A DNA stretch of 64,000 nt, from assembly GCF_034103185.1 (NCBI RefSeq), contig NZ_JAXEGG010000009.1, one strand, 5' to 3'. This document shows positions 39,997 through 60,555 of the stretch, one piece after another (the first letter of the stretch is position 1; each line of letters starts with the position of its first letter). Both the position numbers and the translations under genes were made by a program. Source of the DNA: Prevotella sp. Lineage in GTDB: Bacteria > Bacteroidota > Bacteroidia > Bacteroidales > Bacteroidaceae. A model generated the notes under the pieces. The model made no database searches, was not told the DNA's origin, and saw only the letters and a program-made list of their open reading frames with translations.

Positions 39997-42111
39997 CTAC
40001 TCCTGCGCTCCATCTGACAGCACCACCGAAAGGATTTCCTCGCCGTATTGCTCTGCCGATTTCTTTCCGAAGTAAGGGATAGCGATGAGTTCTTCGATTG
40101 TCTGCGGACTGTTGTTCGCTATCCCGATGAGGGCTTTCTGCTTTATTATGGTGTAGGGAGGGATTGCGAGTTCCACGCTCTTGTTCCACCGCCAACGGCG
40201 GAGAGCCTCGAAAAGTTTCTGATTTTTCACGTCGTCATTGTTCACTTCAGCCTTCTCCGCAGCACGTCTGCCGCCCCGGTTCCGCTTCTCCGGCTTCTCC
40301 GTTCTGCCGTCGAGAACACCGAGAGTAACCCTTTGCTTCAAACGCATGAACGTGGCAGGACTGAAACCGGCAATCGCCACCTCTTTCAGCATTGCCGTTT
40401 TCATCTCGTAAATCATGCACATGTCTGCCACGGCATCGTCGAAACGCTTTCTCACATGCTTGCTGTCGGTGTCGGCAACGGTGGCAGGGAGCAGGTCGCC
40501 GAGCACGTCTGTCACGGTGTTGAGGAAGTAAGTGGCACTGCGTTTCACACGTTCGGCAAACTGCGGAGCGAGGAGTTGTGAGCCGTTCATCCCTACGAAC
40601 ACTCCAATCCACTTGCGCGACACCTCCACAACCTTGTCTTCGATGTCCTTCCGAGCCTGTCTGTGGGCTGCCGCAAGTCGCGGATAAGACGACGAGAAAT
40701 GCTCCTCAAGCACCCGTGCGAGCTGGTTGTCGCTGCGCTGCAGGTCGCTGAAGTCGAACAGTTGGCGCAGTTGCTCTATGTGAAACTGCTCCTTCAGTGC
40801 CGGCAGCATGCTTATACTCTTCCGCGCTGCCTCGCCTTGCTGCGCGATGTAGCATCCCACCCGGCTGTCGTTCATTATGTTCTCCGGCACCACGGGCTTG
40901 GCAAGCACCAGTCCGGCGAGCGACTTACAGCGGCTCAGTGCCACATAAACCTGCCCTGCGGCAAACGAGAATGCGGCGTCTATTATGGCATGTTCGAAGG
41001 TGAGTCCCTGACTCTTGTGTATCGTTATCGCCCATGCAAGGCGCAGCGGCAGTTGCCTGAACACCCCCTGAACGATGCTCTCAATCTCTTTTGTCTTGTC
41101 GTTGAGTTCGTATTTCGCATTCTCCCACTCCATCGGTTCCACCTCAATCTCGCTGTCGTCGCCCGGACATGCCACGCTTACATGCCTCTCATCTATGCTC
41201 GTCACCCGCCCGATGCGCCCGTTGTAGAACCTCCCTGCGGGGTCGTTCTTTACGAACATCACCTGTGCCCCTTCCTTCAGTGTCAGTTCTACGTCTGTGG
41301 GATAGGCATATTCGGGGAACGTTCCCTCCACCTCTGCACTGAAACGATAGGGCTTCGAAGCAATACCGGAGAGTTCGTTCTCGTTGTATGAGTCGGCAAG
41401 GTTGTTGTGTGTGGTAAGTCGTATATAACCATCCTCGGGGCGAGGGTGGAACTCTGGTATGCAGCGTTGGTTGAGCAGTGCAATGTCTTGAGGCGTTACA
41501 TGCCCCTCGCGGATGTTGTTCAGCAGGGCGATGAACTCGGGGTCTTGCTGCCGATAGACGTGTTTCAGTTCGAGTGTTACATAAGGAGTCTGCATCAAAG
41601 CCTTCGAACCGAAGAAGTATGGTGTGTTGTAGTAAGCCTGCAGCAAGGCATGGTCGGTCGCCGTAACCACGGGAGTGAGTTGTTGCAAGTCGCCAATCAT
41701 GAGCAGTTGTACGCCACCGAAAGGTCGGTGCGGGTCGCGAAACCGGCGCATCACGCTGTCTATTGCGTCAAGCAAGTCGCTCCTCACCATAGATATTTCG
41801 TCGATAACCAGCAGGTCGAGCGTGCGCAGCAGTTTCTTCTTCTCTTTCGAAAAGTCGAATCGTTCCTTGTAATGCGCATTGGGAACGTATGGCGACAGTG
41901 GCAACTGAAAGAAGGAATGGATTGTCTGTCCGCCGGCATTTATCGCCGCGACACCCGTCGGAGCCACCAACGCCATGCGCTTAGGCGAGCGTTTTTTCAG
42001 CTCATGCAGAAATGTGGTCTTGCCCGTTCCCGCCTTCCCTGTCAGGAAAATGCTCACGCCGGTGTTCTCAACGAAGTCCCATGCCAGCAGCAATTCTCTG
42101 TTCTCTTCCAT
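39997..42111 (-). CDS. PIF1/RecD-like helicase with C-terminal HRDC domain
   Basis: GKAGTGKT, DEISM, GDLQQL, AITIHKSQGLTF, YVALSR; HRDC LFEALRRWR...PPYTI. Confidence 0.9.
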   Translation of the reverse strand: MEENRELLLAWDFVENTGVSIFLTGKAGTGKTTFLHELKKRSPKRMALVAPTGVAAINAGGQTIHSFFQLPLSPYVPNAHYKERFDFSKEKKKLLRTLDLLVIDEISMVRSDLLDAIDSVMRRFRDPHRPFGGVQLLMIGDLQQLTPVVTATDHALLQAYYNTPYFFGSKALMQTPYVTLELKHVYRQQDPEFIALLNNIREGHVTPQDIALLNQRCIPEFHPRPEDGYIRLTTHNNLADSYNENELSGIASKPYRFSAEVEGTFPEYAYPTDVELTLKEGAQVMFVKNDPAGRFYNGRIGRVTSIDERHVSVACPGDDSEIEVEPMEWENAKYELNDKTKEIESIVQGVFRQLPLRLAWAITIHKSQGLTFEHAIIDAAFSFAAGQVYVALSRCKSLAGLVLAKPVVPENIMNDSRVGCYIAQQGEAARKSISMLPALKEQFHIEQLRQLFDFSDLQRSDNQLARVLEEHFSSSYPRLAAAHRQARKDIEDKVVEVSRKWIGVFVGMNGSQLLAPQFAERVKRSATYFLNTVTDVLGDLLPATVADTDSKHVRKRFDDAVADMCMIYEMKTAMLKEVAIAGFSPATFMRLKQRVTLGVLDGRTEKPEKRNRGGRRAAEKAEVNNDDVKNQKLFEALRRWRWNKSVELAIPPYTIIKQKALIGIANNSPQTIEELIAIPYFGKKSAEQYGEEILSVVLSDGAQE

Positions 42112-42149
42112 CGTTCCTTTCCTTCTTCAGTGATTGCAAAGATAGCAAT

Positions 42150-42293
42150 TTATATCCTTTCGGCAAAGCAAAGGATGCCTAAAAGAGTCTCATCGGCATC
42201 ATGTAATAAAATAAAATCGCCGAAATTGAAGACCAAAATCGGCGAAATTACAAAGCAAAATCGGCGAAATTGGTCAGTAATTTCGCCGATTTT
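42150..42293 (-). repeat. Dispersed intergenic element, copy 3: 22-bp-period array plus tail overlapping the helicase promoter
   Basis: Units at 42213, 42235, 42257, 42279: aaaatcgccgaaatt, aaaatcggcgaaatt x2, aatttcgccgatttt; -7 box TATCTTTG at 42137-42144 (minus). Confidence 0.9.
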
Positions 42294-42308
42294 GCTGCGT
42301 GATACGTA

Positions 42309-43004
42309 TCAGAAGTTGACTCCAAAGGTGAGCATCACCGCGCTGTTTTTGCACTCATCGAAGTCGTCGTGACCGATGTTGGCAAGTCCGAGGTCGTAAG
42401 TGAGGTCGGCATAGAACATGTCTATACCCACGCCAACGCCCATTCTCAGACCGGCGTCGAGACGTTCGAAGGCACTGTCGTAGTCGCCGTCGAACGAACT
42501 ATATGCCTTGCGGTTGTTGTAGTTCTTTATTTTTCCCGACACTCCGCAGGCGAAATAGCCTCCGAAGAACGGCTGTATGGAGAACGTGTTGTCGATGTTA
42601 TAGGCATATTTCATCACGAACGGCAGTTCCACATAGCCGAGATTGTAGGTGAAGTCAAACGGAGCTTTCTTGTTCTTCCCGCCCTTCTCTATGTAGTATA
42701 GTCCCGACTCGAAGTAGAGCGGGGCGCGGTCGGTAAGCCCTACGCCAACGGCCAATCCCACGTTCAGCCCGGTCTTGGTCTTGCCTCCGTCTAAAAGATG
42801 ATTGTCGGAGTTCACGGTGGTGAATGCCGGACCAACCCTGAAGCCGTAGTAAACATCGCGATTGTTGTAATTACCGCGCGTTCTTCTGCCGTAATCCAGA
42901 CGCTGCGTGTTGCGGTTATAATACTTACTCCGTTTGTAGTTCTGTGCGTATGACGGCATCATAACCAATGCTGCCAATGCGATAGTTGCGATGATTTTCT
43001 TCAT
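42309..43004 (-). CDS. Outer-membrane beta-barrel (porin-family/OMP_b-brl) protein
   Basis: Signal peptide MKKIIATIALAA; YVELPFVMKY; DAGLRMGVGV; C-terminal TFGVNF; TATCTTTG box at 43037-43044. Confidence 0.85.
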   Translation of the reverse strand: MKKIIATIALAALVMMPSYAQNYKRSKYYNRNTQRLDYGRRTRGNYNNRDVYYGFRVGPAFTTVNSDNHLLDGGKTKTGLNVGLAVGVGLTDRAPLYFESGLYYIEKGGKNKKAPFDFTYNLGYVELPFVMKYAYNIDNTFSIQPFFGGYFACGVSGKIKNYNNRKAYSSFDGDYDSAFERLDAGLRMGVGVGIDMFYADLTYDLGLANIGHDDFDECKNSAVMLTFGVNF

Positions 43005-43411
43005 ATAAAAACGTTTTTTTAGTACTAAATACGGCGCAAAGATATTGTTTTTCGTGCAAACACCAAAGAGATAACCCCCATTTGTTGTAGGAAAATCCCT
43101 ACTTTTACAAAAAAGGAATACCTTCTTATTGATATATGAACACATGCAAACTTTGTTTTTGTGACAACAAAAAAATTGAACCAAAATCATTCATTATATA
43201 TCATTCTGACTGTGTTCTGTTATCTGTAAAATTGGTTTTAATTTTATCAAAGGCATAAAAGAACTCGCAAAGAGGAAGTGACAAAAAAATAATAAAAAAC
43301 GAACTATGGATGTAGATTAAATGTAACGATTATACAGAATATAAAACTTATGGTCAAAATTACAGATTATCGTTTAAATCATTGTAACTAATATTTGTTT
43401 ACTTCTTATTT

Positions 43412-44152
43412 TCATACACATTCTTTGTTCGTATATAATAGTCTTAGATTTGGCTGCAATATCCTAAAACCACTTCCATGATCATGAGTTCTTCCATTGG
43501 AATAACTCCCTATTCTTATATCAAACATAATCAACCCTTGGTCTAACAAGTCTAAAAAATTATCAAATGATGGTTCTGTATATATTTCTGCTTTATCGAA
43601 ATAAAAATATTCCTCACCACCTTCGTATTTTCTTTTTGCACTTACATAAAACAAATTGTTGAGCTTTCTTTTAAATGTATTTTCCAATACATTGTAGTTA
43701 TAGCCTACAGAATCATCCAAAAGATTATTATTATTTATGTCATACACACCTATCTTTATTGTTTTCTGCAGTCTGTCATTTATTAACTTAAAGGATAGTT
43801 TGCCGGCAAAAGTGTTGTAATTGTTGGCAAAAAGAGAAGTATGTAATTTGTTTAATCCCATTTTCTTCGGGTTATCATAAGGAACTCCGTATTTGGAATT
43901 TAAATATTTATTGGCACCTTTGGGAAATGAAGGAGATTTTGTAAACAATGTTATATATGAACAAGTTTCCTCTCTATGTGCCTTAATCTCGAAGCCTGCC
44001 AAATCCGGTTGGTCTGAATTATTTTCCAAAACACCGATATAATCTTCAAATGTTTTGCCTATGCCAGTATCATTTGTGCGCCTGCTTCTTACATATCCAA
44101 GTTTTTTCACTTCATGGAATTTTCGTATTATAAAGTCTTTGTTACTCTCCAT
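43412..44152 (-). CDS. MvaI/BcnI-family type II restriction endonuclease
   Basis: NDTGIGKTFEDYIGVLENN...PD...EIK...ITLFTKSP...HDHGSGFRI, the MvaI/BcnI PD-(D/E)xK pattern; AT-rich. Confidence 0.85.
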   Translation of the reverse strand: MESNKDFIIRKFHEVKKLGYVRSRRTNDTGIGKTFEDYIGVLENNSDQPDLAGFEIKAHREETCSYITLFTKSPSFPKGANKYLNSKYGVPYDNPKKMGLNKLHTSLFANNYNTFAGKLSFKLINDRLQKTIKIGVYDINNNNLLDDSVGYNYNVLENTFKRKLNNLFYVSAKRKYEGGEEYFYFDKAEIYTEPSFDNFLDLLDQGLIMFDIRIGSYSNGRTHDHGSGFRILQPNLRLLYTNKECV

Positions 44153-44426
44153 AAATTATTATTTTCTCAATTAAAGTATCTATTATGTTACCACTATTAA
44201 AATCATCTTCATCCAAGAAAATTTGTTCTATTCGTATTTTAAATACATTACATAAGGCATTTATTTGACTTAACGTGTATTTGTGAGGTCTATGTGGACT
44301 TTCAATATTACCAATCTGCCCATTACTTAAACCCAACACAGCCCCTAACTGCTGTTGACTATAACCATTATCCTGTCTTAATTTTCTCAATTTAAATATT
44401 ATTATTTGCTGATATTCTGATTTCAT
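44142..44426 (-). CDS. XRE-family HTH controller (C) protein
   Basis: LRKLRQDNGYSQQQLGAVLGLSNGQIGNIES; overlaps the start of the endonuclease gene by 11 bp. Confidence 0.85.
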   Translation of the reverse strand: MKSEYQQIIIFKLRKLRQDNGYSQQQLGAVLGLSNGQIGNIESPHRPHKYTLSQINALCNVFKIRIEQIFLDEDDFNSGNIIDTLIEKIIIYGE

Positions 44427-44545
44427 TGGCTATTTTTTAGTACATTTGCAGGCAAAATTATTCAATTTTAGCGCATTAAACGCTCTCATTTTGAAAGTAT
44501 TTTGTATCTTTGCATTATCATTATGAAAGTTATATGTAGTACAGT

Positions 44546-45784
44546 ATGTATAAAAGAGAAATAAATGACATGTGGAGCTTTAAAGAAGCAGACACGAAAG
44601 AGTACACCCATTGTTATCATACATATCCTGCAATGATGATTCCACAAGTGGCAAGAACTCTCATAAAGGAGTATCGACCGGAGGGAAAGTTAGATTTAAT
44701 ACTTGACCCTTATATGGGAAGTGGTACGACTTTAGTTGAGGCTTCATTAGCAGGGATAAATTCTGTTGGTACAGACTTAAACCCACTGGCAAGATTTATG
44801 ACCAGCGTAAAGACAAAGCACTACAACTATAATAATCTTTTAATGCAATTTCGGGAGATACAATCACATCTGATATTTTATTCAGAGAAAAATGTAAAAA
44901 TACGCAATTTCGATAGAATTTCTAATTACTCATTCTGGTACAATGAAGAAACTCTGATGAAATTATCATACTTGTCACAATTGATAGAGAATGTGGAAGA
45001 CAAAGATTTCTTTAATGTTGCTCTTTCTGAGACGATAAGAGAAGTGTCGTTTACACGTAAGGGTGAATTTAAAAGATACCGAATGAATGAAAGTAGCATC
45101 GCCAAATTCAACCCCGATACTTTCAATCTATTTGAAAAAAAAGTAGTAAGAAATTTGGAGGGATTAAACAGTTATAACAGTAAAGTCAATAAAGATGTTG
45201 CTGTCGGCATATATGGTTTTAATACAATAAATGGTATTCCCTCCGATATAATAAATGAAGGCGATATTGATATGGTCGTGACCTCGCCTCCTTATGGTGA
45301 CAGTAAAACTACTGTTGCTTATGGACAATTTTCAAGGTGGGCAAATGAATGGTTTTGTTTTGACAATGCAAAGAACTTAGATACTATTCTTATGGGGGGA
45401 AGTAAGGCAACTAAAGAAATCTTCAAAACAAACACTATTAGAAATATTTTAGATAAAATAGACCACTTAGAACATAAAAGATATCTGGAAGTAGTATCTT
45501 TTCTAAACGATTATTACCTATCAATCAAGAATGTATCAAAATCTGTTAGAAGCCGTGGTACTGTCTGTTATGTTGTGGGAGATAGGAGAGTTAAAGGTAT
45601 TCAGATACCATTGGATTACTTTACTGCTGAAATGTTTGAAACTTTTGGATTTAAACACGAAACCACAATAGTAAGAGAAATTCCAAATAAAAGAATGCCT
45701 TCTAAAACAAGTCCAACCAATAAAGTTGGAGAAAAAGTAAGTACTATGAGCAATGAATACATCGTAATACTTAATAAAAAGTAA
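44546..45784 (+). CDS. N4-cytosine DNA methyltransferase (M.MvaI-like)
   Basis: TKEYTHCYHTYPAMMIPQ, DPYMGSGTT (SAM motif I), VTSPPY (N4C motif IV); divergent from C-R; AT-rich. Confidence 0.88.
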   Translation: MYKREINDMWSFKEADTKEYTHCYHTYPAMMIPQVARTLIKEYRPEGKLDLILDPYMGSGTTLVEASLAGINSVGTDLNPLARFMTSVKTKHYNYNNLLMQFREIQSHLIFYSEKNVKIRNFDRISNYSFWYNEETLMKLSYLSQLIENVEDKDFFNVALSETIREVSFTRKGEFKRYRMNESSIAKFNPDTFNLFEKKVVRNLEGLNSYNSKVNKDVAVGIYGFNTINGIPSDIINEGDIDMVVTSPPYGDSKTTVAYGQFSRWANEWFCFDNAKNLDTILMGGSKATKEIFKTNTIRNILDKIDHLEHKRYLEVVSFLNDYYLSIKNVSKSVRSRGTVCYVVGDRRVKGIQIPLDYFTAEMFETFGFKHETTIVREIPNKRMPSKTSPTNKVGEKVSTMSNEYIVILNKK

Positions 45785-45869
45785 AGTATAAAAACCATAA
45801 CGGGATGAAATAAAATAATTAAAAGCAATGTCAGTAAAGACATTGCTTTTAATTTATGTAGGAAAATCC

Positions 45870-46889
45870 CTACTTTCTCTTGAACAATACCATTGCCACG
45901 ATGGGCGCGCCGACCAGTGCCGTGACCGAATTGATTGGCAAAGCACCCTCGAAACCGGGCATGCGGGCGATGATGTTGCAGACAAGGGCGAGGGCAGAAC
46001 CGGTGAGCATGGTTGCCGGCATGAGCACCCGGTGGTCGCCGGTGCGCCATATCGAACGGCAGAGATGCGGCACGGCAAGCCCGAGGAACATAATGGGTCC
46101 ACAATAGGCAGTGACGATTGCCACGAGCACACCGCTGCAACCGATTACCAGAAGGCGTGAACGGCGGATGTCAAGACCGAGGTTGCGTGCATAGTCTTCG
46201 CCCAAAAGGAGCAGGTTCATGGTCTTCACAAGGAGCATGGAAAGCGGTATCAGCACTGCCATCAGGGTTACAAAGAGCCACACCTGACCGGCAGAGACTC
46301 TCGAGAAGCTGCCCAGTCCCCATACCACGTATGCCCGGAGGTCTTCCTCGGCAGCAAAATATTTCAGCACACCGATTATCGCCGTTGCCACATATCCTAT
46401 CATAACGCCGATGATGAGGAGCGTCACGTTGCCCTTGACCCTCTGCGCCACATAGACAATCAGCGACATCACGGAGAGCGAACCGATGATTGCTCCCAAC
46501 GACAATGCCGCGTTCCCGGCTATGCCAAGGCTGCTCATCGCCACTCCTCCGATGCTTCCTGAGACGAGCACCATAAGTCCTACGCCGAGCGAAGCACCGT
46601 TGCTGATACCCAGCACCGACGGTCCTGCCAGCGGATTGTGGAACACCGTCTGCATCTGCAGACCCGATATGGCGAGTCCGGCACCGGCAACCATAGCGGT
46701 GAGTGCCTGCGGCAGGCGCGATTTCATTATGATGTTCTGCCACACCATTGAGCTGTCGTCGCCTCCGGTGAGAATGTCCCACACGTCGGCAATGGGTATT
46801 TTCACCGTTCCGAGCATCAGGTTGACGAAGAACATTGCCACGATGACGAGCATCATAAGCAGGAAGAAACGGAAGTTTTTTTTACTCAT
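45870..46889 (-). CDS. btuC: FecCD/BtuC-family ABC permease
   Basis: RLPQALTAM, MQTVFHNPLAGPSVLGISNGA, GEDYARNLG, GPIMFLGLAVPH. Confidence 0.85.
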   Translation of the reverse strand: MSKKNFRFFLLMMLVIVAMFFVNLMLGTVKIPIADVWDILTGGDDSSMVWQNIIMKSRLPQALTAMVAGAGLAISGLQMQTVFHNPLAGPSVLGISNGASLGVGLMVLVSGSIGGVAMSSLGIAGNAALSLGAIIGSLSVMSLIVYVAQRVKGNVTLLIIGVMIGYVATAIIGVLKYFAAEEDLRAYVVWGLGSFSRVSAGQVWLFVTLMAVLIPLSMLLVKTMNLLLLGEDYARNLGLDIRRSRLLVIGCSGVLVAIVTAYCGPIMFLGLAVPHLCRSIWRTGDHRVLMPATMLTGSALALVCNIIARMPGFEGALPINSVTALVGAPIVAMVLFKRK

Positions 46890-48022
46890 TCTATCAGTTT
46901 ATAGTATTTCGGGGTATGGTCTTTCAACACTTCGGGGTGGAAAGCTTTGATGAAGTCTTTCAGCAGAATGTCCGGCTCCATAGCCGAGAGTTCGTTGAGC
47001 GGTGTATTGTTTATGTCGCAGCACACCACCTTTTTCTGCTTAAACGCCTTGAAGTCGGCATAGCGCGGGTCTTCTTCCGCGTGCAAGGCATAGGAAAAAG
47101 GCTCCTTCTCCTTGTTCTGTATTATCCAGAAATCGGCGTTCTCAGCCTTCGAATAAACCACCTCAAAGTCTATAAAAACTCCTCCTGTGCGCTCATCGTC
47201 GAGCATGAAATACTGCCCCGCGGCATCATCCACTATCTCTGCGATGAAACTCTTGCCGCCCATAGCATACCAGTTGTCGCCGTGCATCTTCCCGTAAAGC
47301 ACCCACGGCATCGTCTCATACTTGGGAAGCATCGCCTTGGTGTTGTTGTAGTTGCGCTCCACTTCTGCGAAAATGGCGTTTGCCTCGGCTGTCTTGCCTG
47401 TGAGAAGTCCCACAAACTTTATCCATTCTGCCTGTGCAAGGGGCGACACTTCCTCATATCCCATGTATGGAACAAGCGGCGAACCGGTGTCGCGGAGTTT
47501 GTCGAATCCTCCGCGTTTCGACAGCGATATGAGTATCACATCGGGCTGCACTGCCATTACCAGTTCCTCGTCGAAGTTTCCTTCCTTGCCAATCTTCAGG
47601 ATGCGTTTGTCCTTGATGCGCTGTTTCAGGTCTTTGTCGAAGAGTCGTTTTGCACTCGCAATAGCCTTAACGAAGTCGAGAGCACCGAGTTTTATGAACC
47701 CTCCGAGCTGCTGTGTCGTCATGCAGATTACGCTCTTCACCGGTGTTTCTATCACTGTGTAGCCTGCCGGTATTCCGTCGGGCGATGTTCCGCGTGGCAC
47801 GAGTGCAAAGCGATGAACCGCCGAGGTGTCTGCTCCCTGCGGATTTTTTATCTCCAACAGCCGGAAGCCTTGTTTCTCTTCCACGCTAAACCCCTGTGCA
47901 TATTTCAGACTAACTCTTGCCGTGTCGTTACCGTTTTCGGCATTGCCATTGCCGTTGCCTGTTGTCCTGCCGCATCCCACAAGTAATGCTGCGAGGAATG
48001 AGAAGATGATGATTTTCTTCAT
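46886..48022 (-). CDS. btuF: ABC substrate-binding lipoprotein (BtuF/Fe-siderophore type)
   Basis: LLVGC lipobox; IKYAQGF-like motif (LKYAQGF); E..PLAQAEWIKF; EPDILLKD. Confidence 0.8.
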   Translation of the reverse strand: MKKIIIFSFLAALLVGCGRTTGNGNGNAENGNDTARVSLKYAQGFSVEEKQGFRLLEIKNPQGADTSAVHRFALVPRGTSPDGIPAGYTVIETPVKSVICMTTQQLGGFIKLGALDFVKAIASAKRLFDKDLKQRIKDKRILKIGKEGNFDEELVMAVQPDVILISLSKRGGFDKLRDTGSPLVPYMGYEEVSPLAQAEWIKFVGLLTGKTAEANAIFAEVERNYNNTKAMLPKYETMPWVLYGKMHGDNWYAMGGKSFIAEIVDDAAGQYFMLDDERTGGVFIDFEVVYSKAENADFWIIQNKEKEPFSYALHAEEDPRYADFKAFKQKKVVCCDINNTPLNELSAMEPDILLKDFIKAFHPEVLKDHTPKYYKLIE

Positions 48023-54847: not shown

Positions 54848-55993
54848 TTACTCTGCAGCTGTGGTTGGAGTGGAGAGGGCTTCGTCTGTTCCGAGTTTCT
54901 TGATAGCCTCTTTTGTGTGTTCTATCCACATCCGGCGCACTGCCGAACGCTCGCCGAGAGCCGGGATATACTCACTGCCTTCCTTATATCCCTTCCAGCA
55001 AGCCTCTGCCTTGGGATAGTTAGTCTCGTAAGCAGTGGTTTTGAAGCCCTTTGCGTTGAGGTAGCAGTACCAGCTTTCCTCGTCGTCGGGGTCTGCCATG
55101 TCGTTGTGAGCATGGTCGCCGGCGATGAACATCAGCGGATAGAGCTGCACCTTGGTGCCCTTCTTCAGACCTGTTTTGAGCATACGTTCATACATGTCGG
55201 GGAGCAAATTGCCGGGCATGTCAACCGTTCCTACGAACAGTTTTTGGGAAAGCAGTCCGTTGAAGGCATTCTCAAGTTCAGTGTAACGCCGGTTTGCTCC
55301 GTCGTAGTCGTAACCTTCAGGGTTGCCGTGACCCATGAAAGCCACAACACCTTCTTGGAGAGCAGCCTTTATGTCCTTCTCTTGAAGGAGGTTTTTGGCG
55401 AGTGTAGTCACATCAGCATCTTCTGCCATCAGCGGTGTTCCCACCACAACCTGCTTGTCGATGCTCTTCATGTATGCTTCGGTGAAGTCGCCGTTGTGGT
55501 TGTTCATGAAGTCTTTCACGTAAGAGTCGCGCACGCGGCGGTATTCCTCACCGGGTGTAACCTGCAGCGACTGCACCACAATCTGCTTGTAGCCTGCCAG
55601 TCCGATTGCTGTGAGCCAGTGCTCGGGATCGAAGTATTCGCGCACCTCTGCACCCTCTGCCTTGTGCTCTCCGGCACGTGCATTGTTGATACAGATAGCC
55701 GAAGAGAACGAGAGATAGACATCGTAATTCGGGAATGTCTTCTCATATTCGCTCTTCACGGAGTCGAATGTGTCGAAAGCCTGCTGCCATGTAGCACCGA
55801 AGGCAACGAGGAGGATTACCTTGTCGCTCTTCTTGTGTTTCTTTACGGTTTCGTTAACCACATTCTGGTAGCGGTCGTAATTGGACTGCCCACCGTTGTT
55901 GTCGTCATCGTCGTCACCGCAAGAGGTGAACGCCACAGAACCAATAATTGCCATCATGGCAATCATCAAAAACTTAATCTTCTTCATAATCAC
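54848..55993 (-). CDS. cbiK: CbiK-type cobaltochelatase carried on a lipoprotein
   Basis: AFTSC-GDDDDDNN lipobox plus acidic export signal; ILLVAFGAT, GEEY, FMGHGN and AGDHA metal-binding His motifs. Confidence 0.88.
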   Translation of the reverse strand: MIMKKIKFLMIAMMAIIGSVAFTSCGDDDDDNNGGQSNYDRYQNVVNETVKKHKKSDKVILLVAFGATWQQAFDTFDSVKSEYEKTFPNYDVYLSFSSAICINNARAGEHKAEGAEVREYFDPEHWLTAIGLAGYKQIVVQSLQVTPGEEYRRVRDSYVKDFMNNHNGDFTEAYMKSIDKQVVVGTPLMAEDADVTTLAKNLLQEKDIKAALQEGVVAFMGHGNPEGYDYDGANRRYTELENAFNGLLSQKLFVGTVDMPGNLLPDMYERMLKTGLKKGTKVQLYPLMFIAGDHAHNDMADPDDEESWYCYLNAKGFKTTAYETNYPKAEACWKGYKEGSEYIPALGERSAVRRMWIEHTKEAIKKLGTDEALSTPTTAAE

Positions 55994-58103
55994 TTTGTTT
56001 TACGTTAGAATTGAATTTATTTGAGGTTTTCTTACCTTTCGAAAACTTTATCGTGAACTTTGCATATATCGTGGTGCCGGGTGTGTTCGTGCCGAGATGC
56101 AGCCCGTGAGGGGTGCGGTCAACATAGTTGAAGATGTTGTCAACTCCTGCCTCTATGCTGTAACTCATGGTCTTGCTGCGCCCGAAGTCGTGGACGGTGT
56201 TGATGCGCCAGATGTTGTAACCCTTTCCGTTGCCATTGATTTGATAGTATCTTTTCGACGACATCTTGCCGTATAATCCTATTCCGAGTGAATAGTTCGA
56301 CGAGAAGGTGTGGTTCCATGTAGCGAACACGTTACCCTTGTGGCGCGCCATACCGTCGATGATGACGCGGTTCATGGTATTGTTCTCGCTGTTGTAGAGG
56401 TTTGCCCGGGTGTTGAGATAACTGTATCCCACCCCCATGCTGAACCCGCGCACGCGGTATCTGGCAGAGAAGTCGATGCCCACGGTCTTGGCGTCTTCCA
56501 CGTTGCGGTATTGTCTTACTGCCATAGGGTCGTATTCCACGATATATTCTCCCGGTGCTTCGGAGTTGGGTATTGTCACCAGCGTAATCATGTTATCCAC
56601 GCGGTTGTGGTAGGCAGTCAGCGTAACCGACAGTCCGTTGGCGTTGTATTCGCCCCCGAGCGAGAAATAGTTGCTTGACTGCGGCTTCAGGTCGGTGTTT
56701 CCGAGGTATAGGTATGTTCCTATCATGCTCCTCACGTAGCGGTAATACATCTCCTTGGTGGTGGGCACTTTGAATCCCTGACTCCACGTTGCTCTCCAAC
56801 GCAGCCGCTCTCCGGTGCGCAGCATGGCAGAGAGTTTCGGTGTGAGTCGGTAGCCGAACATGTTGTTGTGGTTAAGTCGCAGTCCGGCACTGATGTTGAG
56901 CCACGGTATGAAGTCGAACTCATCCTGCACGTATATCGCCTCGTGGCTTGCATCAGCCTTGCCATCCACCACTCTTGCCGGTGCCTTCAGCCAGTCGTAT
57001 CTGTACTCCATTCCCACCGACAGGCGGTTGTTGCAGGGCAGCGTGAACACACCCTTGACTTCGGCAATGGTGCGCTGTTGGTCGCTCTGAAGCAGCTGTT
57101 GAGTGGGGAAATACGGGTAATAGTGAGTAAACTTACCTTTATAATATCCGTCTGTAAGCGTGGTATCGGTGAAGAGATAATAGTATGCGTGCCGATCCCA
57201 GCTCACGTCGAGCGTGATGTAGTCGGTCTTAGACAAATTCAGTCTCGCACCGCCTCCGGCAGAGACGTTGCGATACATGAGGTCGAAAGTGTGGACATCG
57301 GTTGAGGCATACTTGCCCGACGGTCTGAATATCCGTTTCCAATAGAAACTTCCATCGGCGTAAATCTGCAGTTTCTTAGTGGCTTGATAGGTCAGCCTCT
57401 CGGCTATCTGCCAGTTGGTATGGCGGTTTGCGGTCTTGTTTCGGGAGTCGGTGATAAGGAATTCGGTCTGGTGTATGTCCTCTACCGATGTGTTCTGCCA
57501 GCCGTCGTTGTGCTGCCATTGGAAGTTAGTGAACGACTGCAGTTTGCCTATTGTAAGTCCCAGTCCGTTATGTTGCCTAACATCTCCGTAACTTCCCACC
57601 CTCGTTGAGTTCTCCACGAGTATTCCGTCGTTGTGCTTCTTGGTGATGATGTTCACCACGCCCGCTATTGCATCGCTTCCGTATAGTGCCGACGAAGCAC
57701 CCTTCACGATTTCTATATGGTCGATGTTCTGCGGGTCTATGAGTCCGAGGTCGTTGTCTCCGCCGTTGTCTCCGTGTATTCTCCTTCCGTCGATGAGGAT
57801 GAGTATGTAGGAGTTTCCGAGCCCGTTGATTTGCATTCTCGACCCCATGTCGCTCTGGTTGAAGTCGAACGATGCCGACAACATTCCCAAGATGTCTTCT
57901 ATGCTGCGTGCTCCGTAGTTGCGAAGTTGCTTTCCGCTGATTACTTCTGTCTGCACAGGGGCGTTCTTCAGCAGATGTTCTGTGCCGGTACCCGTGACCA
58001 CCACCTCGTCGAGAGTGACTTCCTTGTCACTCACGACTTGTGCCGAGGCGGTCATTGTCAGGGCACATAACGTTACTGAAACTATCAATAGTCGTTTGCG
58101 CAT
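55974..58103 (-). CDS. TonB-dependent receptor (BtuB/CirA-like)
   Basis: LDEVVVTGTGT, ILIDGRRI, IEIVKGASSALYGSDAIAGVVNIIT, EAGVDNIFN. Confidence 0.9.
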   Translation of the reverse strand: MRKRLLIVSVTLCALTMTASAQVVSDKEVTLDEVVVTGTGTEHLLKNAPVQTEVISGKQLRNYGARSIEDILGMLSASFDFNQSDMGSRMQINGLGNSYILILIDGRRIHGDNGGDNDLGLIDPQNIDHIEIVKGASSALYGSDAIAGVVNIITKKHNDGILVENSTRVGSYGDVRQHNGLGLTIGKLQSFTNFQWQHNDGWQNTSVEDIHQTEFLITDSRNKTANRHTNWQIAERLTYQATKKLQIYADGSFYWKRIFRPSGKYASTDVHTFDLMYRNVSAGGGARLNLSKTDYITLDVSWDRHAYYYLFTDTTLTDGYYKGKFTHYYPYFPTQQLLQSDQQRTIAEVKGVFTLPCNNRLSVGMEYRYDWLKAPARVVDGKADASHEAIYVQDEFDFIPWLNISAGLRLNHNNMFGYRLTPKLSAMLRTGERLRWRATWSQGFKVPTTKEMYYRYVRSMIGTYLYLGNTDLKPQSSNYFSLGGEYNANGLSVTLTAYHNRVDNMITLVTIPNSEAPGEYIVEYDPMAVRQYRNVEDAKTVGIDFSARYRVRGFSMGVGYSYLNTRANLYNSENNTMNRVIIDGMARHKGNVFATWNHTFSSNYSLGIGLYGKMSSKRYYQINGNGKGYNIWRINTVHDFGRSKTMSYSIEAGVDNIFNYVDRTPHGLHLGTNTPGTTIYAKFTIKFSKGKKTSNKFNSNVKQSDYEED

Positions 58104-58116
58104 CGTCTTTTCTTTA

Positions 58117-60294
58117 TCAGTACTTGAACTTTATGGAGCAGCTGACGTAGAATGTCCGTCCGGGGTTCAGCGTTGCATAGTTGCTGTTGTAGGGACGGTC
58201 GTCGGTCCAGTCGAACACGTTCTCAACTCCGAAACCGGGTTCCAAGATGAGTTTCTTGAGGCTGAAGGTGTGGCGTGTAGAGATGTCCCACATGTTATAA
58301 TGCGGCGCGTAGCCGTAGCTTTCGCTGAAACGGCGGCTGTAGATGCGACCGTTCACGTTTGCATGGAGCGTATATAGTCCCCAAGAGCGTGCCCACTGTG
58401 CGCCCATTGTCCAAGCATTCTTTATCGTTTTGTCGAGAGTTGCGTCGGTGTCGTCGTCTTTTGCCTTCAGGTGAGTGTATGCAGCGTTGAGCGAGAGACC
58501 GCAGCCGAGGTTGGCGTTCATGGCAAGTGTGGTTCCGAGTACTGATGCGTGGTTTATGTTCTGACGCTGTCTCACGGTCTTGTGTCCGTATTTTGCCATT
58601 GCCTCATCGCCCTGTGCTATCGTCACATAGTCAATCATGTCTCTCACCTTGTTGAGGAATACGTTTCCCGAAACGGTGAGCCATGACATTTGATATTCTG
58701 CATTGAAGCCGAAGTAGTTGTTCTTCTCTGCCTTCAGTGCGGTGTTGCCGATGGTCATTCGGTCGATGGTCTTTGCCACGTCGGTGGCATAGATTTCGCT
58801 CAGCGTCGGTGCCTTATATCCCATTGCGTAGTTTGCGCGCAGGTTGAGTCCGCCAATGCGGTACATAAGTGCGACGTTGGGTGTGGCGTAGTTGTGGAAA
58901 TTGCTGTGGTAAAGGTATCTCACTCCGAGGAGCGCATGCAGTCCGCCGCCTATCGTCATCTCGTCTTGAACGAACATGGCGAATGTGCTCGACATCTCTT
59001 TATTGATGTTGTCGCTGGTGCTCTTGAGAGCATCTATCTGATAATCCACGCCCACCGAGAGTTTGTTCCAGTCGGCAAGTGTGAACACTCCCTTGAGAGT
59101 TGCCTCGTGGAAGCGTGTGCGCTTTCTCATCACCGATGTTCCCTTGGGTGTGGTTATGTTGCCCTTTTTGTCCTTGATGTCAACGATATAGTCGTATTTA
59201 GAGTTGAAAATGTCTGTATTGTAGTCGAATGTGATATACGATTTTTCGGTCGTTATCATCTTCATACCGAATGCGTATCCGTATGTTTCGTGCTTGATGT
59301 CGTAGTTGTAAACTTCCTCCGGGCGGTCGGTCTTGTAACGGTAGAAGTTTCCCTCGGTATAGAACGAGAGGCGGTCGTTGGCGTCGTAGGTAAACCTTTG
59401 CGTCACTCCGTCGTCGTGGAAACCGGCAGACGCAATCTTGTTTGTCTCTACGAGTTCGCCTTTCTTGTCTATCTCGTATGGCGAGAGTTGCCATGTGTCA
59501 GCCTCCTGATGCTTGTATGAGGTGTAAGAACCGAACTTTCCCTTCTGCACATCGAGGTTGGCAGACTCCGTAATCCTGCCTTTGTTTGCAATCTTGAAGT
59601 CGTTCTGCACCTCCACGGTGTTCTTGGAGTCGTTGGTGATGATGTTTATAACGCCCCCTATGGCGTTTGTTCCGTAGAGCGTTGATGCCGCGCCGTTGAG
59701 AATTTCCACGCGCTTGATGTTGGCAACGTTCATTCTCTGCCATGTGTCATCGCCCGAAACGCGCCTGCCGTTGACAAGGAAGATGTAGTAATCGTCGGTC
59801 ATTCCGTTCAGCGATACAGTCGAGCCCATGCCGTTTACCATGCTTGTGAACGAGGGAGAGATTTTCTGGAGTGCCTCAAGAAGCGATGTTGCGTTTGTGG
59901 CTGCGATGTCACTTGCCGTGACAACCTGCACCGGCACGGGGCTGTCTTTCAGTCTGTGGTGGGTTCCTGTGCCCGTAACCACCACCTGACCGATGTTCTG
60001 CGATGTCGGTGTCATGTTGATTTTCACCTCTTCTGTCGTACCAACGGGCAGCGACACGGGGGCATAACTCACGTGGGTTATGCTCAACTTGTGTTTCTTG
60101 TCGGGAAGGTTGGTAATTTTGAAACGCCCCTCCGCGTTGGTAACACCTTTCGCCAGACTGTTATCCACACGGATATTGGCGTCTCTAACGGGCCTGCCGG
60201 TCTCGGCGTCGGTCACTACTCCACTCACTACTGTTTGTCCCCACGCATTTGCACAGGCAACAGCGAAAATGATGCTTGCAGCAATCTTTTTCAT
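58117..60294 (-). CDS. TonB-dependent receptor with N-terminal carboxypeptidase-regulatory-like domain (BtuB-like)
   Basis: VVVTGTGT, VEILNGAASTLYGTNAIGGVINIIT, GVENVFD; first gene after the B12 riboswitch. Confidence 0.9.
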   Translation of the reverse strand: MKKIAASIIFAVACANAWGQTVVSGVVTDAETGRPVRDANIRVDNSLAKGVTNAEGRFKITNLPDKKHKLSITHVSYAPVSLPVGTTEEVKINMTPTSQNIGQVVVTGTGTHHRLKDSPVPVQVVTASDIAATNATSLLEALQKISPSFTSMVNGMGSTVSLNGMTDDYYIFLVNGRRVSGDDTWQRMNVANIKRVEILNGAASTLYGTNAIGGVINIITNDSKNTVEVQNDFKIANKGRITESANLDVQKGKFGSYTSYKHQEADTWQLSPYEIDKKGELVETNKIASAGFHDDGVTQRFTYDANDRLSFYTEGNFYRYKTDRPEEVYNYDIKHETYGYAFGMKMITTEKSYITFDYNTDIFNSKYDYIVDIKDKKGNITTPKGTSVMRKRTRFHEATLKGVFTLADWNKLSVGVDYQIDALKSTSDNINKEMSSTFAMFVQDEMTIGGGLHALLGVRYLYHSNFHNYATPNVALMYRIGGLNLRANYAMGYKAPTLSEIYATDVAKTIDRMTIGNTALKAEKNNYFGFNAEYQMSWLTVSGNVFLNKVRDMIDYVTIAQGDEAMAKYGHKTVRQRQNINHASVLGTTLAMNANLGCGLSLNAAYTHLKAKDDDTDATLDKTIKNAWTMGAQWARSWGLYTLHANVNGRIYSRRFSESYGYAPHYNMWDISTRHTFSLKKLILEPGFGVENVFDWTDDRPYNSNYATLNPGRTFYVSCSIKFKY

Positions 60295-60374: not shown

Positions 60375-60555
60375 AATGGCAGGTTTCCTGGCTTACTCCC
60401 GAGATGCCTCGCCTTCCCACGGTATCAAAACCACAGTGGCTTCGTCTTGATGGCATCTCAAACTAAAGGAGATTACAGTAGCGGGTACTGCTCAGGTGTC
60501 ACACCTGATTCCCTTTCATGCCGCGTGTGAAAACACGAAACATCACCAATCGTTT
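60375..60555 (-). ncRNA. Cobalamin (AdoCbl) riboswitch
   Basis: Minus strand AAAGGGAATCAGGTG..ACACCTGAGCAGTACCCGCTACTGTAA...GCCACTG...GGGAAGGCG...AAGCCAGGAAACCTGCC; TACCTTTG promoter box just 5' (60557-60564). Confidence 0.95.

Follow-up and report, generated by a model that had tools for sequence, protein, structure and literature searches.

The window analyzed here (the whole stretch of 64,000 bases, C9:17416-81415 of a Prevotella sp. genome of 2,313,016 bases, 21 contigs, and 48.1% GC) carries a compact cassette of three genes, R, C, and M, all of which have intact reading frames. The R gene (positions 43412-44152, minus strand) encodes a 246-aa MvaI-like Type IIP endonuclease with predicted cleavage at CC/WGG. 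It is overlapped by 11 bp by the gene of a 94-aa controller (C) protein with a Cro/C1-type HTH domain (44142-44426, minus strand; PF13443/PF01381). The M gene, divergent from C-R, encodes a 412-aa DNA methyltransferase (44546-45784, plus strand; PF01555). Within the 119-bp divergent promoter region between M and C-R lies a near-palindrome, CTCTCATTTTGAAAG (44483-44497), which is a conserved block among 8 aligned cassettes and takes the form of a perfect palindrome, CTCTCAAATTGAGAG, in P. phocaeensis. A small HTH gene overlapping R and a palindrome in the promoter region are features of C-protein-controlled cassettes, and it is plausible that CTCTCATTTTGAAAG is the C-box operator recognized by the C protein. 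NCBIfam provided no useful name for R, C, or M, and the names of the methylase homologues were generic and did not include a specificity.

The endonuclease matched the PF15515 (MvaI_BcnI) profile over its entire length (E = 2.1e-64, profile positions 1-227 of 227), and its match to R.MvaI (PDB 2oa9; E = 4e-36, 128 bits, ~40% identity) was far above that to R.BcnI (PDB 2odh; E = 1.7e-12, 51 bits). In R.MvaI, catalysis depends on Glu36, Asp50, Glu55, and Lys57, while base contacts are made by Arg25, Asn28, Thr29, Asn45, Asp207, Arg209, Tyr213, His223, Asp224, and His225, among which Arg209 contacts the O4 of the central thymine (PMC1874612). The endonuclease keeps the four PD-(D/E)XK residues (E36, D50, E55, and K57), all identical to those of 2oa9, along with nine of the ten base contacts (R25, T29, N45, D207, R209, Y213, H223, D224, and H225), N28 being replaced by Asp; in the N-terminal half of the alignment, its numbering is the same as that of PMC1874612. 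At the diagnostic sites, both MvaI and the endonuclease described here read DIRIG and THDHG, where BcnI reads DLCID and PHDRG. The methyltransferase displayed an N-terminal motif I (DPYMGSGTT, residues 54-62) and a TSPPY motif IV (residues 246-250). The SPPY form of motif IV is typical of N4-cytosine methylases. The product of M.MvaI is given as Cm4CWGG in PMC3001055.

The closest characterized counterpart of this cassette is the MvaI system of Kocuria varians (PDB 2OA9/2OAA). Both have a single-domain PF15515 endonuclease of ~246 aa, the same catalytic residues (E36, D50, E55, and K57), the same major-groove readers (D207, R209, H223, D224, and H225), a methylase with TSPPY, and the target CCWGG, which is predicted in our case. 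The endonuclease here is nevertheless only ~40% identical to its counterpart, with N28 changed to Asp and H214 to Ser. Moreover, it is found in an anaerobe of the Bacteroidota, whereas Kocuria is an actinobacterium, and its cassette includes a C gene that overlaps R and a divergent M gene. BcnI of Brevibacillus centrosporus (2ODH/2ODI), which cuts CC/SGG, belongs to the same fold family and shares the monomeric two-lobed architecture and the cut position (PMC1874612, PMC3203586). However, its match is the weaker one, it has Cys and Arg at the positions of R209 and H225, and CCSGG is not avoided in the genome under study.

The target itself is nearly absent from the surrounding DNA. An exact count over the window returned a single CCWGG (CCTGG on the plus strand, CCAGG on the minus strand) at 60387-60391, in agreement with the lone site reported by the sequence-only reading, alongside 111 CCAG, 216 CCTG, and 117 CCSGG. 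That reading had expected about 125 CCWGG sites, a figure that holds as a zero-order estimate (133) but not under a maximum-order Markov model, which predicts only 36 because the CCAG/CTGG tetramer is itself rare. One site against 36 corresponds to P(X<=1 | 36) = 8e-15. Meanwhile, CCSGG, which had been described as common, stands at expectation (117 vs Markov 122). Genome-wide, CCWGG occurs 166 times vs 1,422 expected under the Markov model (ratio 0.117) and 4,029 under zero order (ratio 0.041), and its Markov ratio is the bottom value of all 512 strand-pooled 5-mers. This density corresponds to 4.6 sites per window (P = 0.057 for one), so that a single site is locally unremarkable. The one-mismatch neighbours of CCWGG displayed Markov ratios of 0.83-1.59 across the genome. 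Markov-corrected counts place CCWGG far below expectation in the window, the genome, and the nearest sampled relative (G133, described below).

Codon usage provided insights into how the word was removed. In a crude gene set of 1,142 long ORFs, Pro codons CCA/CCT preceding Gly fall to 2.7% in the CCWGG-forming context (36% elsewhere), and NCN codons with a final C preceding TGG to 0.9% (26% elsewhere). Likewise, in the C_G context Gln is encoded by CAG in 5.8% of the CCWGG-forming cases (67% elsewhere) and Leu by CTG in 1.0% (31% elsewhere). Synonymous avoidance of CCWGG is thus 13- to 30-fold and extends to all three frames. The route of removal varies by frame, being a W to S change at the centre, any change of the third base, or a G to A change. 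The avoided thing is the DNA word itself, not any peptide. Markov under-representation, specificity for the site, and an effect exerted on the DNA instead of on the protein are the marks of restriction-site avoidance, and all three were found here.

The only CCWGG of the window (60387-60391, minus strand) sits within a full-length cobalamin riboswitch (RF00174; 60361-60563, minus strand; Rfam 83.6 bits, E = 4e-19, gathering score 31.5) located upstream of two TonB-dependent receptors (58117-60294 and 55974-58103). It falls in the B12 box, of consensus AGCCAGGAgACCuGCC, and reads CCAGG in the RNA sense. The genome encodes four cobalamin riboswitches, and the other three read AGTCAGAARACCTGCC. 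Among 22 riboswitches from 11 relatives, the B12 box lacks CCWGG in 21 (mostly GTCAGAA, some GCCAGAA) and reads GCCAGGA in one, regardless of whether the genome avoids CCWGG. A single G to A change would remove the riboswitch CCWGG, and such a variant is found in nature. Because the three other riboswitches of this genome and 21 of the 22 in relatives lack CCWGG, CCAGG is dispensable in this riboswitch family, and the site is most readily understood as one that persisted through weak constraint or chance, not by necessity.

The sequence-only reading had proposed that CCWGG was purged except where RNA function forbids it. This holds for the tRNA genes, which in 3,782 bases contain 16 of the 166 CCWGG sites, a 65-fold enrichment; it does not hold well for the riboswitch that had suggested it. 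The surviving sites are clustered, as 59 of the 163 binned sites fall in 15 of 232 10-kb bins. These bins also contain more of the other avoided words, and those listed have a GC content of 39-49%. Over all bins, CCWGG density correlates positively with the density of the other avoided words (Spearman 0.23-0.29, p < 1e-3) and negatively with GC content (Spearman -0.23). This is as expected of recently imported DNA.

CCWGG is one among ~15 palindromes avoided throughout the genome. The Markov ratios of the depleted 4-mers are 0.04 for CTAG, 0.10 for GGCC, and 0.13 for GATC. Among longer words, they are 0.02 for GTCGAC, 0.04 for AGCGCT, 0.05 for GTATAC, 0.08 for CATATG, GTAGAC, and ATGCAT, 0.09 for CTTAAG and GGCGCC, 0.10 for CCATGG and AGCGCC, and 0.29 for GAATC. 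With the exception of GAATC, all of these words are depleted as much as CCWGG or more. Some of them form full degenerate sets: GTATAC, GTCGAC, and GTAGAC together make up GTMKAC (AccI-like), while AGCGCT, GGCGCC, and AGCGCC make up RGCGCY (HaeII-like). The avoidance of entire degenerate sets suggests past or present systems with GTMKAC and RGCGCY specificities, and GAATC at 0.29 may hint at GANTC. The long list of depleted words marks this genome as one shaped by many restriction systems.

Avoidance profiles differ by Prevotella species. Avoidance of CTAG is common to most of the genus, and GATC is avoided by most of the 20 nearest relatives. In samples of 20-60 kb, several genus members (G001, G007, G009, G014, and G018) are nearly without CCSGG, because CCGG itself is strongly depleted (for example, 4 occurrences in 60 kb of G009). 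In the genome under study, CCAG/CTGG is ~2-fold depleted in all 5' and 3' contexts, beyond CCWGG, with CCAGA, CCAGC, and CCAGT at 0.40-0.56 of the zero-order expectation. The W-swapped CCTG/CAGG is undepleted, and the window contains 176 CCAG/CTGG vs 414 CCTG/CAGG. No resident system that would explain the depletion of CCAG/CTGG was identified in the genome.

The cassette occupies an AT-rich island (43106-45856; 30.9% GC vs 51.9% in the rest of the window). The island has no CCWGG, which is uninformative since only 1.1 would be expected. It is bounded by two perfect copies of a 20-bp direct repeat, TGTAGGAAAATCCCTACTTT, both on the plus strand. The left copy is at 43086-43105 and the right one at 45857-45876, where it overlaps the stop codon of a FecCD/BtuC-like permease gene (45870-46889, minus strand). 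These are the only two copies of the repeat in the genome, even when 3 mismatches are allowed, and the repeat is therefore not a member of a dispersed Prevotella repeat family. Adjoining the right repeat on its island side, a hairpin with a perfect 16-bp stem and trailing T's (45817-45854) is likely the terminator of the methylase gene. This hairpin resembles one at the equivalent place in the nearest sampled relative; thus, the exact right boundary of the insertion is uncertain.

That relative, G133, displayed 87% nucleotide identity over the oxidoreductase genes, where all others displayed at most 77%. To the left and right of the island, G133 and the window are collinear, and in place of positions 43113-45873 G133 has ~117 bp of unrelated sequence. 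G133 has one copy of the repeat, with 19 of its 20 positions matching, followed by ~97 bp of unrelated spacer. Neither a PF15515 gene nor a methylase homologue was found in G133. It is nonetheless poor in CCWGG, with 43 sites in 246 kb (ratios of 0.32 Markov and 0.12 zero-order) and 3 sites vs 56 expected (Markov) in an 80-kb syntenic block. Meanwhile, the 20 next-nearest relatives (75-77% identity at the oxidoreductase locus) have normal CCWGG content (Markov 0.59-1.01), while nearly all of them avoid CTAG and GATC. Since G133 is depleted and those 20 are not, the purge arose once these relatives had split off and, at the latest, in the ancestor that this species shares with G133. The earlier proposal of a lineage-level exposure to CCWGG systems is supported by G133, depleted in spite of having no cassette, although the lineage concerned is a narrow one made up of this species and G133.

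As for the island itself, 20 outgroups gave a match to the permease gene only, with no conservation of the OMP-permease junction or of the repeat; because they do not have the OMP-btuC junction, gain and loss of the island are not polarised. The locus is present in contigs of four short-read pig-gut metagenome runs, which come from three studies. In one run, a 16.6-kb contig is identical across positions 41500-47500. The left border is spanned by short contigs of two other runs, and contigs of two runs extend into the right repeat. No joint corresponding to an empty site across the island was found in these four runs, only the occupied form.

The arrangement is reminiscent of the R-M gene insertions for which Furuta et al. 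2010 reported long target duplications (PMC2853133). As in those cases, the island contains only R-M genes, without integrase or transposase, and the direct repeat at its borders is single-copy in the related genome and found nowhere else. In contrast, long target duplications are defined by repeats of >30 bp and by flanks that are continuous in the genome with the empty site. The repeat here is 20 bp, below the 30-bp threshold, and the sequence of G133 past its single copy is unlike that which follows the right repeat in our genome. Because it does not continue into the right flank, this is not a simple insertion.

Homologues of the cassette allowed the association between gene content and site depletion to be followed across genomes. 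Among 400 genomes of the same GTDB genus, five others encode a close homologue of the endonuclease (57-70% identity): Hoylesella marshii (G157), P. falsenii (G049), P. phocaeensis (G012), G294, and G367, in which it is a pseudogene. CCWGG is scarce in all five, its zero-order ratio in 17-80 kb away from the cassette being 0.19, 0.00, 0.05, 0.01, and 0.10, respectively, and in all of them CCSGG is near expectation (Markov 0.66-1.18). In the 42 genomes without a close homologue, the zero-order ratio is mostly 0.36-1.29 (Mann-Whitney p = 2e-4, from samples of 10-80 kb per comparison genome whose phylogenetic independence is not formal). Two genomes, G019 and G262, are depleted of CCWGG even though they have no close endonuclease homologue. 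The same pattern was observed in the DNA around 11 close homologues (Bacteroidales and a single Flexilinea MAG), which contains 15 CCWGG vs 76 (Markov) and 159 (zero-order) expected, together with 64 CCSGG vs 76 (Markov).

Nine homologous loci keep the M / C-R architecture, none of them with the neighbour genes seen here, and the methylase homologues adjoining R in loci L001-L010 are 62-79% identical. In nine of the nine other hosts examined, the GC content of the cassette (0.32-0.40) is below that of its flanks (0.43-0.52). AT-richness thus characterizes this family of cassettes, and the low GC of the island does not date its residence. This removes the conflict that had earlier been seen between deep avoidance and an AT-rich, apparently foreign island.

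Several side observations concern relatives of these enzymes. In G367, a stop or frameshift interrupts the gene of the MvaI-like endonuclease (G367:C18:17243-17982), but the adjoining methylase (63% identical) is intact. This genome is still CCWGG-poor (4 sites vs 30 Markov), and the locus looks like an R-M system in decay. PF09019 (EcoRII-type) had no match in the genome under study or in G133, G019, G009, and G262, nor did it have any in the controls. Seven genomes (G108, G175, G187, G173, G262, G284, and G388) encode ORFs of 395-430 aa with a distant MvaI/BcnI-like domain (26-30% identity), which match the two-domain enzyme UbaLAI in size. Four of the five hosts sampled are not CCWGG-poor and G262 is partly depleted (G388 is represented by 3 kb and G284 was unsampled). 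As four of the five sampled hosts retain the site, these enzymes may recognize a different target or may have arrived recently.

Based on these findings, we postulate that the scarcity of CCWGG is a case of classical restriction-site avoidance driven by an MvaI-family R-C-M cassette, an explanation in which we have high confidence. The counts, the anatomy of the cassette, its conserved residues, the codon bias, the empty site, and the association across genomes are the observations from which we infer its cleavage and methylation specificity, its activity, and the direction of causation. In the proposed mechanism, the endonuclease would cut CC/WGG as a monomer, the methylase would protect CCWGG as N4-methylcytosine, and the C protein would time their expression through the palindromic operator. 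Whenever methylation lapsed, chromosomal CCWGG sites would become lethal targets, so that variants that had lost sites would be favoured. The outcome would be a purge of ~9-fold (Markov) to 25-fold (zero-order), achieved mostly through synonymous codon choice, with survivors concentrated in tRNA genes and in stretches of apparently recent acquisition. G133 would then carry the trace of a lost system.

This explanation presumes that the cassette recognizes CCWGG. As PF15515 spans both MvaI and BcnI specificities, and as identity to R.MvaI is only ~40%, the target might instead be CCSGG or another word, with the scarcity of CCWGG due to an unrelated cause. The far better match to MvaI than to BcnI (128 vs 51 bits) and the presence of the MvaI-type determinants R209 and H225 where BcnI differs speak against this, as do the genomes themselves, since CCSGG occurs about as often as expected both here and in every homologue-bearing genome, while all of them are depleted of CCWGG. 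We consider a non-CCWGG target very improbable. The earlier claim of a CCWGG-specific resident system therefore stands, being backed by the MvaI-over-BcnI match, the conserved MvaI contacts, the TSPPY motif, and the homologue-bearing genomes that are CCWGG-poor and CCSGG-normal; the system is very probably CCWGG-specific, an assignment that draws on homology (~40% identity to R.MvaI) and on correlation. A mutational origin deserves equally little credence. A Dcm-like C5-methylase could mark CCWGG, with deamination of 5-methylcytosine eroding it to CTWGG/CCWAG, and the shift of Gln from CAG to CAA in the C_G context is the change expected from deamination. The genome does encode one C5-methylase domain (C4:6331-7320), as part of a fusion with an N6 methylase that has an NPPY motif. 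However, the deamination products CTTGG/CCAAG are not in excess (Markov 0.88, zero-order 0.70), the W to S change at the centre in the Pro-Gly frame (CCC/CCG) is impossible through deamination, the NCC-TGG frame was purged through third-base changes to A, G, or T, and the motif of the resident methylase is of the N4 type (TSPPY). The differing routes of removal, the products without excess, and the single C5-methylase domain make a Dcm-type cause unlikely. The ORF in question (856 aa, C4:4837-7407), which lies outside the window, combines an N-terminal PF00145 C5 domain with a C-terminal NPPY domain of the N6-adenine type, and it is the sole C5-methylase of the genome.

Because G133 is depleted without a cassette, the copy described here need not have caused the purge; an unrecognised system from a different family, also specific for CCWGG, may have played a part, and the correlation across genomes could also run in reverse if cassettes establish more easily where sites are already rare. 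The cassette might be recent, with an earlier CCWGG system of the same or another family having purged the ancestor before being lost, and the present copy having later inserted between the OMP and btuC-like genes and simply profiting from a near-site-free genome. Such a history would account for the empty site of G133 with its ~117 bp of unrelated spacer, for the depletion of G133 without an R or M homologue, and for an island bounded by a perfect 20-bp direct repeat that is absent elsewhere in the genome. It also suits the occurrence of the cassette in only five distant species among 400 genus members, in a different context in each, and the contrast between 31% GC in the island and 52% in the rest of the window. 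But AT-richness is a family trait and provides no clock, loss from G133 via recombination between the repeats would look alike, outgroups without the OMP-btuC junction leave gain and loss unpolarised, and the pig-gut metagenomes of three studies contain the occupied form only. In addition, the purge is deeper here than in G133 (Markov 0.12 vs 0.32), which is what continuous action in this genome would produce, and the difference fits continued pressure here and relaxation in G133. Taken together, a recent arrival is a serious contender that in our view falls somewhat short of being probable, and we lean towards ancestral retention in this species with loss in G133 over an older system that was lost and then re-acquired here.

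A more far-reaching version of this history is that genome composition serves as a memory and thereby influences the choice of R-M cassettes able to settle. The purge would have been made by an earlier system that was lost, and an AT-rich MvaI-family cassette circulating in Bacteroidales would preferentially re-invade lineages that are nearly free of its sites. We regard this as speculative and rather unlikely. If true, the costs of establishment and of post-segregational killing would be minimal in such lineages, and the association between cassette and depletion over six unrelated Prevotella species would be due to the filtering of incoming cassettes no less than to purging by resident ones.

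Restriction-site avoidance driven by the MvaI-family cassette, our preferred explanation, agrees with what is known of Type II systems. Rusinov et al. (2015) found the site to be avoided in 48% of the site-genome pairs for which a system is resident and reported that avoidance depends on the residence time of the system and persists after its loss (PMC4687349). As in their cases, an orthodox Type II site is under-represented in its host genome, the avoidance is common to a close relative without the system, and avoided sites outnumber identifiable systems in the genome. There is no difference in kind; what sets the present case apart is the unusually deep depletion and the three-frame codon signature. 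Avoidance of Type II sites, its dependence on residence time, and its persistence after loss are already known, and no new mechanism is described here. What is new is a clade of MvaI-family cassettes in Bacteroidales with a predicted specificity, together with an unusually deep and cleanly dissected purge whose age is bracketed by a pair of sister species.

These findings make a teaching case of site avoidance, with a 25-fold synonymous purge in three frames, survivors in tRNA genes and recent DNA, and a sister species that retains the footprint without the genes. They also correct the idea that the core of a riboswitch protected the last site. Finally, the cassette predicts a methylation barrier (m4C at CCWGG) that matters for the transformation of this pig-gut Prevotella, and the other avoided palindromes predict further barriers.
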